From the sequence record MZ726794.1: 39,917 nucleotides of DNA; one strand, written 5' to 3'. The first letter of the stretch is position 1; each line of letters opens with the position of its first letter. Below the pieces are notes generated by a model. It had not been told where the DNA came from and searched no databases. It worked only from the letters and a program-made list of their open reading frames with translations. The stretch is from Escherichia phage vB_EcoA_ASO2B. Shown one piece after another: positions 1,120-36,190 of this stretch. The position numbers and the translations under genes are program-made.

Positions 1120-1650
1120 ATGGAACGTAACGCTAACGCATACTATGAGCTGCTGGCTGCAACCGTTGAGCTGTTCAATGAGCGTATTCAGTGCGACGAA
1201 ATAGCTGAAGGCGATGACTACAGTGATGCGCTGCATGAGGTCGTAGACGGTAATGTTCCGCATTATTACCACGAGATTTACACGGTGATGGCTGCTGATG
1301 GTATTGACAATGAGTTCGAAGACTCTGGGCTGATGCCTGAGACCAAGGACGTAACGCGTATACTACAAGCTCGCATCTATGAGGCACTGTATAACGATGT
1401 GTCTAATAGCTCTGAGGTGGTCTGGTTTGAGGCTGAAGAGGAAGACGAAAAGGCTGAAGAGGAAGACGAAAAGGCTGAATATTGGGTAGTTGACACTAGA
1501 ACAGGCGAGATAATTGAGGCAGCTGTATCACTTTGCGAGGCTATTGCATGTGCAAAAGAACTCTATGAGGAAGGTTTTCACATGCAAGTCGAAGACATCA
1601 ACGATAACGTAGTGTTCGATCCTGAGGCTGCTGAGGAGGACTGCGAGTGA
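1120..1650 (+). CDS. ocr: Ocr-like DNA-mimic anti-restriction protein (T7 gene 0.3 homolog), 176 aa with extended acidic C-terminus
   Basis: Translation contains [43 protein letters not shown], closely matching the T7 Ocr core ([43 protein letters not shown] as I recall it); strong SD gagagga; highly acidic. Confidence 0.85.
   Translation: [176 protein letters not shown]
1432..1479 (+). repeat. Perfect 21-bp tandem duplication (gctgaagaggaagacgaaaag x2 plus partial third) inside ocr
   Basis: Seen directly; encodes [16 protein letters not shown] in the acidic tail of Ocr. Confidence 0.85.
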
Positions 1651-21007: not shown

Positions 21008-21031
21008 ACTAAACTATCACTATAGGGAGAC
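21008..21031 (+). promoter_or_regulatory. Phage RNAP promoter (phi10-like), full consensus ctaaactatcactatagggaga
   Basis: Only copy with the full GGGAGA start; located upstream of the capsid gene as T7 phi10. Confidence 0.85.
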
Positions 21032-22310: not shown

Positions 22311-22350
22311 AAACCCCTTGGGTGCCTTCGGGTGCTTGAGGGGTTTTTTG
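22311..22350 (+). terminator. Late terminator (Tphi-like)
   Basis: aaaccccttgggtgccttcgggtgcttgaggggttttttg: GC-rich hairpin with G-U pairs plus a T6 tract, near-identical architecture to T7 Tphi. Confidence 0.85.
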
Positions 22351-22364
22351 CTTAAGGAGGTACT

Positions 22365-22454
22365 ATGGTCCTTATTTACACAGGGTTAGCACTATTCGTC
22401 TTATTCTGGGCGTACCTGCTGTCCAGCTCACCGTCTAGCGCCTATGACCGTTAA
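22365..22454 (+). CDS. Possible small hydrophobic peptide (29 aa)
   Basis: ATG 22365 with SD aaggagg; MVLIYTGLALFVLFWAYLLSSSPSSAYDR; its stop codon lies inside the SD of gene 11. Confidence 0.3.
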   Translation: MVLIYTGLALFVLFWAYLLSSSPSSAYDR

Positions 22455-22465
22455 GGAGTAAACCT

Positions 22466-23032
22466 ATGGCTCAATACATTCCACTGAATGCTAACGATGA
22501 CTTAGACGCCATCAACGATATGTTAGCTGCTATCGGTGAACCAGCAGTCCTACAGCTTGACGAGGGGAACGCTGACGTCTCGAACGCTCAACGTATCCTG
22601 CATCGTGTCAATCGTCAGGTCCAAGCTAAAGGCTGGAACTTTAATATCAATGAAGCTGCTGTCCTGACACCTGATGTCCAAGACAATAGGATTCGATTCT
22701 TGCCGTCATACCTTCGCGTAATGACCGCTGGGGCCACCAGCTACTACAGCAACATGGGTGGATACCTGTACGACCTATCCACTCAGTCAACCACTTTCAC
22801 CGACCCCATCACGGTAGAGCTTGTGGAGATGAAGCCATTCTCCGAGATGCCTGTGGTCTTCAGGGACTACATCGTCACTAAAGCTAGCCGTGAGTTCAAC
22901 GCTAAGTTCTTCGGTAGCCCAGAGTCAGAGCTATACCTTCGTGAGCAGGAAGCAGAACTCTATCAGCAGGTTATGGAGTACGAGATGGACACTGGTCGCT
23001 ACAACATGATGTCTGACATCGGGAGGGACTAA
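22466..23032 (+). CDS. Tail tubular protein A (T7 gene 11 homolog)
   Basis: RILHRVNRQVQAKGWNFNINE, YIVTKASREFNAKFFG, EYEMD match T7 gp11. Confidence 0.9.
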   Translation: MAQYIPLNANDDLDAINDMLAAIGEPAVLQLDEGNADVSNAQRILHRVNRQVQAKGWNFNINEAAVLTPDVQDNRIRFLPSYLRVMTAGATSYYSNMGGYLYDLSTQSTTFTDPITVELVEMKPFSEMPVVFRDYIVTKASREFNAKFFGSPESELYLREQEAELYQQVMEYEMDTGRYNMMSDIGRD

Positions 23033-23259
23033 TGGCTAGTCACAACCTGAAGATTCACCGCCAGCACTTTGGTCCGGTACAACTAGGTCTAAAGACAGCA
23101 GAGCTGAGACTTAACGACCGGGACTTTAAGGTTGGCGATTGGCTTATCCTGAATGAGTGGGACAACGGGTATACTGGACAACAGGTAGCACGTAAGGTTG
23201 TCCACATTGCTGACGTTGGTGACATCGCTGAGGGATACGTCCTAATGAGTATGATTTAA
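23032..23259 (+). CDS. Small PUA/ASCH-like protein (DUF3850-like), 75 aa, inserted between gp11 and gp12
   Basis: Pattern KIHRQHFGPVQLGLKTAELRLNDRDFKVGDWLILNEWD...YTGQQVARKVVHI resembles DUF3850 small phage proteins (from memory); start overlaps gp11 stop (TAATG). Confidence 0.55.
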   Translation: MASHNLKIHRQHFGPVQLGLKTAELRLNDRDFKVGDWLILNEWDNGYTGQQVARKVVHIADVGDIAEGYVLMSMI

Positions 23260-23268
23260 GGAGGGCCT

Positions 23269-25626
23269 ATGCCACTAATTACTCAATCAATCAAGAACCT
23301 TAAAGGTGGTATTAGCCAGCAGCCAGACATACTGAGGTTCTCAGACCAAGGCGAAGCACAAGTTAACTGCTGGTCATCCGAGAGTGATGGCCTCCAGAAG
23401 CGCCCACCTACAGTCTTCAAGCGACGTCTTAACATCGACGTTGGAAGCAACCCTAAGTTCCACCTGATTAACCGTGATGAGCAGGAGCAGTATTACATCG
23501 TGTTCAATGGGTCAAACATTCAGGTAGTTGACTTGAGTGGTAATCAATACGCAGTGTCAGGTTCGGTAGACTACGTTAAGTCCTCCAACCCACGAGATGA
23601 CATCCGTGTCGTTACCGTGGCAGACTATACGTTCGTCGTTAACCGTAAGGTTGTCGTCAAAGGTGGAAGCGAGAAGTCACACTCTGGTTATAACCGCAAA
23701 GCACGAGCTTTAATTAACCTACGTGGTGGACAGTATGGTCGAACCCTTAAGGTGGGAATCAACGGTGGCGTTAAGGTCTCGCATAAGCTACCAGCAGGTA
23801 ATGATGCCGAGAATGACCCGCCTAAGGTGGACGCTCAAGCCATTGGTGCAGCTCTGAGAGACCTTCTTGTTACTGCCTACCCTACCTTCACGTTTGACCT
23901 TGGGTCTGGATTCCTGCTAATCACAGCTCCTTCAGGGACCGATATTAACTCAGTGGAGACGGAGGATGGCTACGCTAACCAGCTAATAAGCCCAGTCCTA
24001 GACACTGTGCAGACAATCTCTAAACTACCTCTTGCTGCTCCTAATGGGTATATCATTAAGATTCAAGGTGAGACAAACAGTAGCGCCGATGAATACTACG
24101 TGATGTATGACTCCAACACTAAGACGTGGAAGGAGACAGTGGAGCCGGGAGTTGTCACTGGGTTCGATAACACCACAATGCCACACGCTCTGGTACGACA
24201 ATCTGATGGCTCCTTTGAGTTCAAGGCTCTGGACTGGTCTAAGCGTGGTGCTGGTAATGATGACACAAGCCCTATGCCTAGCTTCGTGGATGCTACGATT
24301 AACGATGTGTTCTTCTACAGGAACAGGCTAGGGTTCTTGTCAGGCGAGAACGTAATCATGAGCCGTTCAGCAAGCTACTTTGCGTTCTTCCCTAAGAGTG
24401 TGGCGACACTGAGTGATGATGATCCTATTGATGTAGCTGTAAGTCACCCTAGAATCTCAATCCTTAAGTATGCCGTTCCGTTTAGCGAGCAGCTACTACT
24501 TTGGTCAGATGAGGTGCAGTTCGTGATGACAAGCTCAGGGGTCCTTACCTCGAAGTCTATCCAGCTTGATGTAGGCTCAGAGTTTGCCTTAGGAGATAAT
24601 GCCAGACCGTTCGCTGTAGGACGCTCAGTCTTCTTCTCAGCGCCTCGTGGATCATTCACCAGCATTAAGCGATACTTCGCTGTAGCAGATGTGTCTGACG
24701 TGAAGGATGCCGATGATACCACTGGTCACGTACTATCCTATATCCCTAACGGGGTGTTTGACATTCAGGGAACAGGGACTGAGAACTACATCTGCGTCAA
24801 CTCTACAGGTGCATACAACCGAATCTACATCTACAAGTTCTTGTTTAAGGACGGCGTACAGCTTCAAGCCTCTTGGTCTCACTGGGAGTTCCCTAAAGCT
24901 GATAAGATTCTGGCGTCTGCGTCGATTGGCTCTACCATGTTCATTGTTCGTCAGCACCAAGGCGGCGTGGACCTTGAGCACCTTAAGTTCATCAAGGAGG
25001 CAACTGACTTTCCGTCAGAGCCGTATAGACTCCACGTTGACTCCAAGGTGTCTATGGTCATCCCAATTGGCTCGTTTAATGCTGACACATATAAGACTAC
25101 GGTTGACATTGGTGCTGCTTATGGTGGTAATGCTCCGTCTCCCGGTCGGTACTATCTGATTGACAGTCAGGGTGCTTATTTGGACCTTGGGGACTTGGCC
25201 AGTATCTCTACTGTGATTACCCTCAACGGCGATTGGTCAGGACGTACAGTGTTCATCGGACGGCCCTATCTGATGTCCTACAAGTTCTCACGGTTCCTGA
25301 TTAAGATTGAAGATGATAGGGGCACTCAGTCTGAAGACACTGGTCGTCTACAGCTTCGTCGGGCTTGGGTCAACTACAAGGACACTGGCGCTCTGAGACT
25401 CATTGTCAGAAACGGTGAGCGAGAGTTCGTTAACACCTTTAATGGGTACACCCTTGGTCAGCAGACCATAGGGACTACTAACATTGGTGACGGGCAGTAT
25501 CGCTTCGCTATGAATGGTAACGCATTAACCACGAGTCTAACCTTAGAGTCCGACTATCCTACCCCAGTGTCAATCGTTGGATGTGGCTGGGAGGCGTCAT
25601 ACGCTAAGAAAGCTCGTTCCGTCTAA
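23269..25626 (+). CDS. Tail tubular protein B (T7 gene 12 homolog)
   Basis: Size (785 aa vs 794) and synteny; SD ggaggg. Confidence 0.93.
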   Translation: MPLITQSIKNLKGGISQQPDILRFSDQGEAQVNCWSSESDGLQKRPPTVFKRRLNIDVGSNPKFHLINRDEQEQYYIVFNGSNIQVVDLSGNQYAVSGSVDYVKSSNPRDDIRVVTVADYTFVVNRKVVVKGGSEKSHSGYNRKARALINLRGGQYGRTLKVGINGGVKVSHKLPAGNDAENDPPKVDAQAIGAALRDLLVTAYPTFTFDLGSGFLLITAPSGTDINSVETEDGYANQLISPVLDTVQTISKLPLAAPNGYIIKIQGETNSSADEYYVMYDSNTKTWKETVEPGVVTGFDNTTMPHALVRQSDGSFEFKALDWSKRGAGNDDTSPMPSFVDATINDVFFYRNRLGFLSGENVIMSRSASYFAFFPKSVATLSDDDPIDVAVSHPRISILKYAVPFSEQLLLWSDEVQFVMTSSGVLTSKSIQLDVGSEFALGDNARPFAVGRSVFFSAPRGSFTSIKRYFAVADVSDVKDADDTTGHVLSYIPNGVFDIQGTGTENYICVNSTGAYNRIYIYKFLFKDGVQLQASWSHWEFPKADKILASASIGSTMFIVRQHQGGVDLEHLKFIKEATDFPSEPYRLHVDSKVSMVIPIGSFNADTYKTTVDIGAAYGGNAPSPGRYYLIDSQGAYLDLGDLASISTVITLNGDWSGRTVFIGRPYLMSYKFSRFLIKIEDDRGTQSEDTGRLQLRRAWVNYKDTGALRLIVRNGEREFVNTFNGYTLGQQTIGTTNIGDGQYRFAMNGNALTTSLTLESDYPTPVSIVGCGWEASYAKKARSV

Positions 25627-25651: not shown

Positions 25652-25674
25652 CTTAACTATCACTATAGGGACTA
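25652..25674 (+). promoter_or_regulatory. Phage RNAP promoter (phi13-like)
   Basis: ccttaactatcactatagggact. Confidence 0.8.
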
Positions 25675-32995: not shown

Positions 32996-35900
32996 ATGTC
33001 CACGATTACACAATTCCCTTCAGGAAACACTCAGTACAGGATTGAGTTCGACTACCTCGCCAGAACGTTTATTGTTGTTACGCTGGTGAATAGCTCTAAC
33101 CCTACCCTGAACCGTGTACTGGAAGTTGGTCGAGATTACCGATTCCTTAATCCAACGATGATTGAGATGTTGGTTGACCAATCAGGTTTCGACATCGTTC
33201 GTATTCACCGTCAGACTGGAACTGACTTAGTGGTAGACTTCAGGAATGGCTCAGTGTTGACAGCTAGTGACCTGACCAATTCAGAGCTTCAGGCTATCCA
33301 TATTGCAGAAGAAGGTAGAGACCAAACGGTTGACTTAGCGAAGGAATATGCCGATGCTGCTAGTAGCTCTGCTGGCAACGCTAAGGATAGCGAGGACGAA
33401 GCACGACGAATCGCTGAGAGTATCAGGGAAGCTGGTCTAATTGGCTATATTACCCGTCGCTCCTTCGAGAAAGGCTACAACGTTACAACATGGAGCGAGG
33501 TCCTGCTATGGGAAGAGGATGGTGATTATTACCGCTGGGATGGTACGCTTCCAAAGAACGTTCCTGCTGGTTCAACTCCTGAAACTTCCGGTGGGATTGG
33601 ATTAGGTGCGTGGGTTAGTGTTGGTGATGCTGCTTTAAGAAGTCAGATTTCAAATCCTGAGGGGGCAATACTCTACCCTGAATTACATAGAGCACGCTGG
33701 CTTGATGAAAAAGATGTTCGTGGTTGGGGTGCTAAAGGTGATGGTGTCACTGATGATACAGCAGCGTTAACGAGCGCATTAAACGACATACCGGTTGGAC
33801 AAAAGATTAATGGCAATGGGAAGACATATAAGGTCACGTCCCTGCCTGACATTAGTCGCTTCATCAACACTCGTTTCGTTTATGAGCGCATTCCCGGACA
33901 ACCTCTTTATTATGCCTCTGAGGAATTTGTTCAGGGTGAGTTGTTCAAAATAACTGACACCCCTTATTACAATGCGTGGCCTCAGGATAAAGCGTTCGTA
34001 TATGATAATGTGATATATGCACCTTACATGGGCAGCGATCGTCATGGTGTCAGTCGTCTGCATGTATCATGGGTTAAGTCTGGTGATGATGGTCAAACAT
34101 GGTCTACTCCAGAGTGGTTAACTGATCTGCATCCAGATTACCCTACAGTGAACTATCACTGTATGAGTATGGGTGTATGTCGCAACCGTCTGTTTGCCAT
34201 GATTGAAACACGTACTTTAGCCAAGAACGCATTAACCAATTGTGCATTGTGGGATCGCCCCATGTCTCGTAGCCTGCATCTTACTGGTGGTATCACTAAA
34301 GCTGCAAATCAGCAATATGCAACAATACATGTACCAGACCACGGACTATTCGTGGGTGATTTTGTTAACTTCTCTAATTCTGCGGTAACAGGTGTATCCG
34401 GTGATATGACTGTTGCAACCGTAATAGATAAGGACAACTTCACGGTTCTTACACCCAACCAGCAGACTTCAGATTTGAATAACGCTGGAAAGAATTGGCA
34501 CATGGGTACGTCTTTCCATAAGTCTCCATGGCGTAAGACAGACCTTGGTCTAATCCCTCGTGTCACAGAGGTGCATAGCTTTGCTACTATTGATAACAAT
34601 GGCTTTGTTATGGGTTATCATCAAGGCGATGTAGCCCCACGCGAAGTTGGGCTTTTCTACTTCCCTGATGCTTTCAATAGCCCATCTAGTTATGTTCGTC
34701 GTCAGATACCATCTGAGTATGAACCAGATGCGTCAGAGCCGTGCATCAAGTACTATGACGGTGTATTATACCTTATCACTCGTGGCACTCGTGGGGATAG
34801 ACTAGGTAGCTCTTTGCATCGTAGTAGAGACATAGGTCAGACTTGGGAGTCACTGAGATTTCCACATAATGTTCATCATACTACATTACCTTTTGCTAAA
34901 GTAGGGGATGACCTTATTATGTTTGGTTCAGAACGTGCAGAAAATGAATGGGAAGCAGGTGCACCAGATGATCGTTACAAGGCATCTTATCCTCGCACCT
35001 TCTATGCACGCTTGAATGTAAACAATTGGAATGCAGATGATATTGAATGGGTTAACATCACTGACCAGATTTATCAGGGCGGAATAGTTAACTCAGGTGT
35101 AGGTGTTGGTTCGGTAGTTGTGAAGGATAATTACATCTACTACATGTTTGGTGGAGAGGACCATTTTAACCCATGGGCATATGGAGATAACTCAGCGAAG
35201 GACCCATTCAAATCAGATGGTCATCCCTCAGATTTGTATTGCTACAAAATGAAGATTGGCCCAAGCAATCATGTTTCCCGTGATTTCAGGTATGGTGCTG
35301 TACCTAACAGAGCTGTTCCCGTGTTTTTTGATACGAATGGGATTCGCACTGTTCCTGCGCCAATGGAATTTACAGGGGATTTGGGTTTAGGTCATGTGAC
35401 CCTTAGAGCCAGCACCAGTAGTAACATTCGCTCTGAAGTTTTAATGGAAGGTGAATATGGGTTTATCGGGAAGTCTATACCGACTGATAATCCAGCAGGG
35501 CAGCGCACCATATTTTGCGGAGGTGAAGGCACCAGTTCAACGACTGGCGCACAGATTACGCTTTATGGTGCAAATAACACCGACTCAAGGCGAATAGTTT
35601 ACAATGGTGATGAGCATCTGTTCCAGACTGCTGACGTTAAGCCTTATAACGATAACGCCATTGCGCTTGGTGGGCCAAGTAACCGTTTCACAACTGCATA
35701 TCTCGGAAGCAACCCTATTGTTACTTCTAATGGGGAGAAGAAAACAGAGCCGGTAGTTTTTGATGATGCTTTCCTAGATGCCTGGGGTGACGTTCACTAC
35801 ATCATGTATCAATGGTTAGATGCTGTTCAACTGAAAGGCAATGATGCTCGTATTCACTTCGGGGTTATTGCTCAGCAAATTCGTGATGTATTCATTGCAC

Positions 35901-36190
35901 ACGGTCTGATGGATGAAAACAGTACGAATTGTCGTTATGCCGTTCTGTGTTATGACAAGTATCCACGGATGACCGATACGGTATTTTCGCACAATGAAAT
36001 CATTGAACACACTGACGAGGAGGGTAATGTCACTACTACGGAAGAGCCTGTATTCACTGAGGTGGTTATCCATGAAGAGGGTGAAGAGTGGGGTGTCCGG
36101 CCTGACGGAATTTTCTTTGCTGAAGCCGCTTATCAGAGAAGAAAACTGGAAAGAATCGAAGCCAGACTTTCTGCTCTTGAACAGAAGTAA
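32996..36190 (+). CDS. Tail fibre / tailspike (gene 17), 1064 aa: T7-type N-terminal adaptor fused to sialidase-type (endosialidase-like) depolymerase with C-terminal intramolecular chaperone
   Basis: N-terminus RIEFDYLARTFIVVTL matches the T7 gp17 adaptor (NIPFEYLARKFVVVTL); two perfect Asp-boxes SGDDGQTW (34079-34102) and SRDIGQTW (34823-34846); C-terminal HFGVIAQQ chaperone motif with Ser911-x3-Lys-Lys at 35726. Confidence 0.9.
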   Translation: MSTITQFPSGNTQYRIEFDYLARTFIVVTLVNSSNPTLNRVLEVGRDYRFLNPTMIEMLVDQSGFDIVRIHRQTGTDLVVDFRNGSVLTASDLTNSELQAIHIAEEGRDQTVDLAKEYADAASSSAGNAKDSEDEARRIAESIREAGLIGYITRRSFEKGYNVTTWSEVLLWEEDGDYYRWDGTLPKNVPAGSTPETSGGIGLGAWVSVGDAALRSQISNPEGAILYPELHRARWLDEKDVRGWGAKGDGVTDDTAALTSALNDIPVGQKINGNGKTYKVTSLPDISRFINTRFVYERIPGQPLYYASEEFVQGELFKITDTPYYNAWPQDKAFVYDNVIYAPYMGSDRHGVSRLHVSWVKSGDDGQTWSTPEWLTDLHPDYPTVNYHCMSMGVCRNRLFAMIETRTLAKNALTNCALWDRPMSRSLHLTGGITKAANQQYATIHVPDHGLFVGDFVNFSNSAVTGVSGDMTVATVIDKDNFTVLTPNQQTSDLNNAGKNWHMGTSFHKSPWRKTDLGLIPRVTEVHSFATIDNNGFVMGYHQGDVAPREVGLFYFPDAFNSPSSYVRRQIPSEYEPDASEPCIKYYDGVLYLITRGTRGDRLGSSLHRSRDIGQTWESLRFPHNVHHTTLPFAKVGDDLIMFGSERAENEWEAGAPDDRYKASYPRTFYARLNVNNWNADDIEWVNITDQIYQGGIVNSGVGVGSVVVKDNYIYYMFGGEDHFNPWAYGDNSAKDPFKSDGHPSDLYCYKMKIGPSNHVSRDFRYGAVPNRAVPVFFDTNGIRTVPAPMEFTGDLGLGHVTLRASTSSNIRSEVLMEGEYGFIGKSIPTDNPAGQRTIFCGGEGTSSTTGAQITLYGANNTDSRRIVYNGDEHLFQTADVKPYNDNAIALGGPSNRFTTAYLGSNPIVTSNGEKKTEPVVFDDAFLDAWGDVHYIMYQWLDAVQLKGNDARIHFGVIAQQIRDVFIAHGLMDENSTNCRYAVLCYDKYPRMTDTVFSHNEIIEHTDEEGNVTTTEEPVFTEVVIHEEGEEWGVRPDGIFFAEAAYQRRKLERIEARLSALEQK

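Follow-up and report, generated by a model that had tools for sequence, protein, structure and literature searches.

The 75-residue open reading frame (ORF) lying between genes gp11 and gp12 of Escherichia phage vB_EcoA_ASO2B is a real gene, and it encodes a stand-alone, minimal ASCH/PUA-like β-barrel of the DUF3850 family. The window analyzed here is the whole stretch of DNA in sequence record MZ726794.1, 39,917 nucleotides in length. The identity of the gene, its accessory status, and its non-structural role can jointly be held with high confidence. Overall, the best explanation of the data is an accessory, non-structural ASCH/DUF3850 gene whose product has a pocket for a nucleobase or nucleotide, a reading that we consider fairly probable.

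Gene Identity and Predicted Fold

The original prediction had placed a 75-residue ORF between the two tail-tube genes, coupled to gp11, and had likened it to the DUF3850/ASCH proteins with their PUA-like fold. The ORF is indeed found at this boundary, where it starts with ATG and splits gp11 from gp12 (Table 1). A 9-nt spacer containing GGAGGG separates it from gp12, and gp13 is the next ORF after gp12. The family assignment is supported by Pfam, PHROG, the Protein Data Bank, and a structure model. Residues 4–73 of the protein align with positions 2–76 of the 77-position Pfam DUF3850 model (PF12961) with a score of 70.1 bits (cut-off, 22.9 bits; E = 1.9e-19), and the ASCH model (PF04266) is matched with 26.2 bits (cut-off, 21.2 bits; E = 1.4e-5). 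PHROG 986, which bears the label “RNA-binding protein”, is matched with an E-value of 2.8e-35; the protein covers only positions 95–171 of its 253-position profile, i.e., PHROG 986 includes longer proteins. The only sequence match in the PDB is 3IUW, an 83-residue protein from Enterococcus faecalis (E = 1.2e-10).

The AlphaFold2 model of the protein, based on 23 homologues, has a mean pLDDT of 84.4 and shows the PUA-like fold that had been foreseen. The predicted fold matches that of 3IUW, in agreement with membership in DUF3850, and the modeled β-barrel is similar to those of solved ASCH proteins. Among viral structures, every match is a phage protein of the DUF3850/ASCH type, and in the structure comparison the ASCH matches score far above the hub matches. 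No structural-protein family was matched by the protein in Pfam or PHROG, and NCBIfam gave no match; PADLOC returned one faint match of 14 bits, which is regarded as noise. Rfam gave no match anywhere in the whole window.

Table 1. Features of the gp11–gp12 region of the window and of the transcription unit to which it belongs.
Feature	Position	Strand	Basis or remark
Phage RNA polymerase promoter (phi10-type), nearest upstream promoter	21012–21028	+	Exact match to AACTATCACTATAGGGA
Tphi-like terminator hairpin and T-run, between gene 10 and gene 11	22311–22350	+	Site at 22325–22342, then T-run
gp11 (tail tubular protein A/gatekeeper), upstream neighbor	22466–23032	+	Pfam Tube, E = 3.6e-46
Left copy of short direct repeat flanking the gene (core GGAGGG.CT)	23011–23031	+	Repeat search
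Start signals of the 75-residue gene	23021–23034	+	Shine-Dalgarno GGGAGGG (23021–23027) in the last gp11 codons, then TAATG
75-residue DUF3850/ASCH gene	23032–23259	+	ATG ORF; Pfam DUF3850, ASCH, PHROG 986
Codons G19–D36 (GLKTAELRLNDRDFKVGD), putative ligand/active site	23086–23139	+	ASCH GxKxxxxR and DUF3850-invariant NDRDFKVGD
Right copy of the direct repeat; holds the gene stop TAA (23257–23259) and the gp12 Shine-Dalgarno GGAGGG (23260–23265)	23249–23269	+	
gp12 (tail tubular protein B/nozzle), downstream neighbor	23269–25626	+	Pfam Phage_nozzle, 1095 bits
phi13 promoter, closing the 11/DUF3850/12 transcription unit	25655–25671	+	Exact AACTATCACTATAGGGA core

Expression Signals

The ATG of the gene (23032–23034) and the TAA of gp11 (23030–23032) share one base in the sequence TAATG (context, GGGAGGGACTAATGGCT). 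Together with the Shine-Dalgarno sequence inside gp11, this overlap is a signal consistent with the coupled expression proposed in the original prediction. The protein encoded by gp11 ends in G-R-D, for which the window uses GGG AGG GAC. In IMM-002, which is without the gene, the same gp11 end (IGRD) is encoded via GGT CGA GAC, i.e., with no Shine-Dalgarno sequence, whereas GGGAG(G/A)GACTAATG is kept at the gene start in all 20 T7-like carrier loci. The recoding of the last gp11 codons suggests, indirectly, that the small ORF is under selection to be translated. A weak 24-nt inverted repeat (71% complementary) relates the first codons of the small gene (23033–23056) to gp12 codons 9–17 (23295–23318).

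The promoter core AACTATCACTATAGGGA has 11 matches in the window, compared with 0.06 expected. The promoter at 21012 precedes gene 10 and that at 25655 precedes gene 13; between 21028 and 25655 the window contains no further match, so that the gene is without its own promoter. By this layout, the DUF3850 gene belongs to the late 11–12 transcription unit, and the same promoter–terminator–promoter arrangement is annotated in the EcoDS1 record. Transcription of gene 11, the DUF3850 gene, and gene 12 would require the polymerase to read through the Tphi-like terminator. Between the Tphi-like hairpin and gene 11 there is also a hydrophobic ORF of 29 residues (MVLIYTGLALFVLFWAYLLSSSPSSAYDR; 22365–22454, + strand) with a strong Shine-Dalgarno sequence (TAAGGAGG). 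In relatives, this slot before gene 11 holds other small ORFs, one of 68 residues in locus L088 and one of 64 residues, ORF38, in phage B1.

Conservation, Selection, and Origin

The window is a Kayfunavirus (K1F-like, Studiervirinae). Its gp11–gp12 stretch is 99.7% identical to that of Escherichia phage Mt1B1_P3 and 95–97% identical to those of approximately 100 Kayfunavirus records. A junction probe of 828 nt, consisting of 300 nt of gp11, the gene, and 300 nt of gp12, was at least 80% covered in 163 phage records, among the 192 whose best match was at least 80% identical. Absence of the ORF from all relatives had been listed among the points that would refute the original prediction; this is not so, as about 160 deposited relatives carry the gene in the same slot. 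Its statement that the insertion is not a T7 feature holds: genes 11 and 12 are separated by 23 non-coding bases in T7 and by 15 in T3, with no ORF between them in either phage.

Across 20 T7-like carrier loci, taken from IMG/VR, GenBank, and metagenome contigs and covering alleles of 68–100% amino acid identity, the gene is 75–76 codons long and always lies between gp11 and gp12. Pairwise dN/dS values are 0.10–0.25 for the gene, 0.10–0.18 for gp12, and 0.01–0.07 for gp11, with dS saturated between alleles of the 75-residue gene. The gene is under purifying selection. Indeed, the Pfam DUF3850 match, the constant length, and dN/dS values like those of gp12 indicate that the ORF is not a chance one.

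The GC content of the gene (48.2%) is close to that of the window (49.7%), and its composition is not foreign. In a neighbor-joining tree of the domain, calculated on approximately 75 columns and without support values, the T7-like copies fall into a single clade that excludes the siphovirus, P2-like, and other copies, which suggests one old acquisition. The gene was probably acquired once, by an ancestor of the Kayfunavirus lineage of the EcoDS1/ST31/Mt1B1_P3 type, exactly at the gp11/gp12 boundary. Recent horizontal transfer was also considered and is ruled out by the non-deviant GC and GC3, the single old clade, and the saturated dS.

When the loci L090 and L091 are compared with positions 22466–25626 of the window, a mosaic boundary is sharply visible where gp11 meets the DUF3850 gene: amino acid identity is 99.5–100% for gp11, 68% for the DUF3850 protein, and 74.5% for gp12. 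Between L013 and L090, the dN of the DUF3850 gene (0.170) is larger than that of gp12 (0.064), indicating that recombination also separates the DUF3850 gene from gp12.

Relatives without the Gene

The gene is absent from the close relatives K1F, YZ1, and ST0223. At the amino acid level, full-length gp11 and gp12 of K1F are 100% and 98.6% identical to those of the window, respectively, with 97% DNA identity for both genes, and gp11 of YZ1 and ST0223 is 99.5–100% identical. All three lack precisely the 237 bp between the small-gene ATG and the gp12 ATG, which leaves the junction GGGAGGGACTAATGCC. The two copies of the direct repeat that flanks the gene are 71% identical, with a spacing of 238. 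In more distant gene-less phages (IMM-002, CR8, SH3, T7, and T3), TAA is followed by a short spacer that holds a Shine-Dalgarno sequence and then by ATG, and carriers have this same arrangement downstream of the small gene. Since this is the usual arrangement in both settings, the overlapping junction of the K1F type is best interpreted as the scar of a secondary deletion, and we infer that the gene was apparently lost in K1F, YZ1, and ST0223 by deletion between the short GGAGGG.CT(A)ATG repeats.

Regardless of whether the event was a loss or a gain, the genomes indicate that a tail made of identical gp11 and near-identical gp12 works without the 75-residue protein. A structural tail role was thus rejected on the basis of these natural deletions, as the same tail proteins are used without the gene in K1F, YZ1, and ST0223. 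Phages with the gene, such as EcoDS1 and Mt1B1_P3, and phages without it, such as K1F and YZ1, also provide a natural near-isogenic test bed in an easily engineered T7-like background.

Orthologues in the Same Slot and Virion Proteomics

The genes EcoDS1 AS9_0040, vB_EcoP_F gp44, “DUF3850” of Providencia phage EPr2, and 11.05 of Citrobacter phage CR44b occupy the same gp11/gp12 slot, with the same TAATG and the same length of 75 residues. Most same-slot Kayfunavirus orthologues are 96–100% identical to the window protein. The exception is the degenerate 11.05 of CR44b (NC_023576; L095; 22053–22277), which has an intact ORF and only 44.6% identity, with NDRDF changed to SIPEI and E24 to D; its degeneration could be due to relaxed selection or to a change of function. 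The orthologues are annotated as hypothetical, RNA-binding, DUF3850, or gene 11.05 (CR44b), and the papers on phage B1 and Hafnia phage Ca report the 75-residue ORF only as hypothetical or of “unknown product”. Public annotation already covers the gene, its slot, and the family to which it is assigned. For the window itself the gene matters little, being publicly annotated and not needed for the tail; the original observation is right but unremarkable.

According to the CR44b record, mass spectrometry gave matches for 7.3, 8, 9, 10A, 11, 12, 14, 15, 16, 17, and 17.01, and none for 11.05, the degenerate orthologue without NDRDF. The proteomics study of the Citrobacter phages SH1, SH3, and SH4 is uninformative for the gene: in SH3, for which a virion proteome has been reported, the tail-tube genes are 11 nt apart, i.e., SH3 is without the gene. 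The virion protein list of Citrobacter phage SH4 includes nothing named between the tube genes.

Several observations concern the surroundings of the gene. Hafnia phage Ca/yong1 (MK610268) and Enterobacter phage B1 carry an additional ORF of 146–158 residues downstream of the DUF3850 gene and ahead of gene 12, annotated as an endonuclease in the Hafnia phages and as hypothetical in B1. The short spacer preceding gp12 seems to be a hot spot for insertions. Three near-identical Kayfunavirus records (PV615262, OR786095, and MT350292; 84–100% identity for the 75-residue protein) were deposited as Acinetobacter, Staphylococcus, and Enterococcus phages, host labels that look doubtful for an enterobacterial phage group. 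The window encodes a K1F-type endosialidase as its tailspike (32996–36190), in which all of the endosialidase domains in Pfam are present together with a T7 tail-fiber N-terminus.

Conserved Residues and Putative Pocket

The motif GxKxxxxR, which has been described as a conserved pocket motif of ASCH proteins (PMC5615036), is present in the 75-residue protein as G19-L-K21-T-A-E-L-R26, and the DUF3850 constellation K..E.R.NDRD.K.GD is complete. Among 50 sequences with 35–100% identity, K21, E24, N28, D29, R30, and G35 are 100% conserved, and R26, D31, K33, and D36 are conserved in at least 94%. In total, 12 polar residues (H4, K7, K21, E24, R26, N28, D29, R30, D31, K33, D36, and E42) are essentially invariant. 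The protein is near neutral, with a pI of 6.38 and a charge of −1.1, and the family median pI is approximately 6.2, values that describe bulk charge only. This combination of 12 invariant polar residues within 75 residues, a median pI of about 6.2, and a net charge of about −1 would fit a pocket better than a basic polymer-binding surface, and pocket binding is favored over polymer binding for this reason.

The DUF3850 Family and the Proposed Function

INPHARED contains 560 phage records with DUF3850, and the family comprises 16,141 clusters at 50% identity (E ≤ 1e-3); it is thus very large and enriched in phages. At 68 non-T7 viral loci, its neighbors include P2 GPA, primase Zn-ribbon/Toprim, DUF3987, NinB, NinG, Dam methylase, HNH proteins, and helicases. 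The domain is fused to the C-terminal HTH of DnaA in one case (L070, 3533–4234); other fusions (P0032–P0180) involve LexA/MarR/Crp HTH domains, DUF551 (11 of the 91 long relatives), and once a dATP/dGTP pyrophosphohydrolase, and many long relatives have extensions of 100–300 residues without a Pfam match. These neighbors and fusion partners suggest a role in the biology of DNA or nucleotides. Among the papers examined from a full-text literature search, none reports a biochemical or genetic test of function for a DUF3850 protein. A phenotype in Kayfunavirus would annotate thousands of phage genes.

On the reading favored here, the DUF3850 gene would be expressed in the late unit between phi10 and phi13, downstream of the Tphi-like terminator, and its translation would start from the GGGAGG Shine-Dalgarno sequence recoded into the last gp11 codons, at the TAATG stop/start overlap. 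The product would be a small, near-neutral, soluble protein in which the family-invariant polar residues form the ASCH pocket. This pocket may bind a nucleobase or nucleotide and might also act on it chemically; the ligand could be free or flipped out of a nucleic acid (DNA or RNA). The ligand class is proposed tentatively, and catalysis is possible. The protein would act in the nucleic-acid metabolism of the phage or in its interaction with the host and not in tail assembly, and the gene would have entered the tail operon as a passenger. The late-operon slot differs from the replication-module slot of most DUF3850 members, and the function could differ here.

Alternative Explanations

The position of the gene and its coupling to gp11 would also be explained if its product were a minor part of the virion or a chaperone that helps to assemble the gp11/gp12 tube. 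This is very improbable: K1F, YZ1, and ST0223 build tails from the same or nearly the same proteins without the gene, T7 and T3 have no such gene, and the mass-spectrometry matches of CR44b include both neighbors and even the small gp7.3 and not 11.05, albeit a degenerate orthologue. Moreover, ASCH structure scores far exceed hub scores in the absence of any structural-protein family match, co-variation with gp12 is not strict, as seen from the dN values of L013 and L090, and elsewhere DUF3850 genes are found in replication modules. The gene might instead be a decaying passenger, i.e., a selfish or neutral remnant without current function. Although repeated loss in K1F, YZ1, and ST0223, the missing NDRDF of the CR44b orthologue, and the mobile HNH genes that insert beside the DUF3850 gene in some relatives would agree with such decay, it is scarcely credible for a gene of intact length with dN/dS of 0.10–0.25 and saturated dS, whose copy in the window keeps all family-invariant residues and whose Shine-Dalgarno sequence is maintained inside gp11.

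Other explanations concern the ligand. The PUA-like barrel could bind phage or host RNA, such as late mRNA or tRNA, and modulate translation or RNA stability late in infection. A regulator of this kind is unlikely, given that neighbors and fusion partners in the family are DNA replication, recombination, and DNA-binding modules, and that YqfB-type ASCH proteins show no RNA binding in EMSA. PUA/ASCH domains are classically RNA-associated, ZmASCH binds and cleaves ssRNA (PMC5615036), and the DUF3850 gene sits with late genes; however, the window protein, like most of its family, is near neutral, in contrast to the positive cleft of ZmASCH, and the “RNA-binding protein” label of PHROG 986, which is in line with such a role, was transferred from the fold. 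By analogy with host sensors, the mini-ASCH might also serve as a counter-defense decoy, sequestering or destroying a modified mononucleotide, e.g., Dam-derived m6dAMP from host DNA degradation, and thereby blinding PUA-domain sensors. Metis (MisA) and PUA-Cal-HAD sense m6dAMP via a domain of the PUA/ASCH clan, and Metis acts against T7; the same fold class, the strongly conserved polar residues of a putative pocket, the near-neutral charge, the patchy distribution of an accessory gene, and the one relative fused to a dATP/dGTP pyrophosphohydrolase domain would be compatible with a decoy. The early or anti-defense location of a sponge resembling Tad or Acb2 is not seen, as the gene lies in the late 11–12 unit, whereas the Ocr DNA mimic gene is near the left end of the window (1120–1650), and a screen of accessory genes for counter-defense (bioRxiv 10.1101/2023.04.06.535777) makes no mention of ASCH, PUA, gp11, or K1F. 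A decoy is quite improbable; if true, it would be the first function for DUF3850, with its approximately 16,000 clusters at 50% identity.

Comparison with Known Systems

The proposed accessory pocket protein can be compared with several ASCH and PUA-like systems. YqfB-type ASCH enzymes use free N4-acetylcytidine as substrate, and EMSA revealed no binding of nucleic acids by them. The catalytic residues of YqfB are Lys21, Thr24, and Glu74, in addition to Arg26. In an hhalign alignment, K21 and R26 of Escherichia coli YqfB correspond to K21 and R26 of the window protein (GRKTITIR in YqfB and GLKTAELR in the window protein). However, the nucleophile Thr24 of YqfB is Glu24 in the window protein, a residue invariant in DUF3850, and no counterpart of YqfB Glu74 is alignable, the alignment stopping at residue 47; YqfB is also longer, with 103 residues compared with 75. 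The change from Thr24 to Glu rules out an N4-acylcytosine amidohydrolase of the YqfB type. ZmASCH binds and cuts ssRNA via a continuous positive cleft (PMC5615036), whereas the window protein is near neutral in bulk charge.

Metis (MisA) and the PUA-Cal-HAD sensors belong to the same fold superfamily and are a precedent for a PUA-like pocket with free m6dAMP in T7-type infection. They are host-encoded and fused to effector enzymes, and their link to the window protein is an analogy only. Within DUF3850 itself, 3IUW, a structural genomics entry for the “activating signal cointegrator” NP_814290.1 of E. faecalis V583, is a member like the window protein, but it comes from a Gram-positive host, bears a generic name, and is not encoded in a tail operon. 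Finally, a ParB-CTPase fold fused to DUF3850 has been reported in (pro)phages (PNAS 2025/bioRxiv 10.1101/2025.10.10.680097). These fusions contain the CTP-binding ParB fold and adjoin parA, whereas the window protein is the bare domain, encoded by a lytic T7-like phage.
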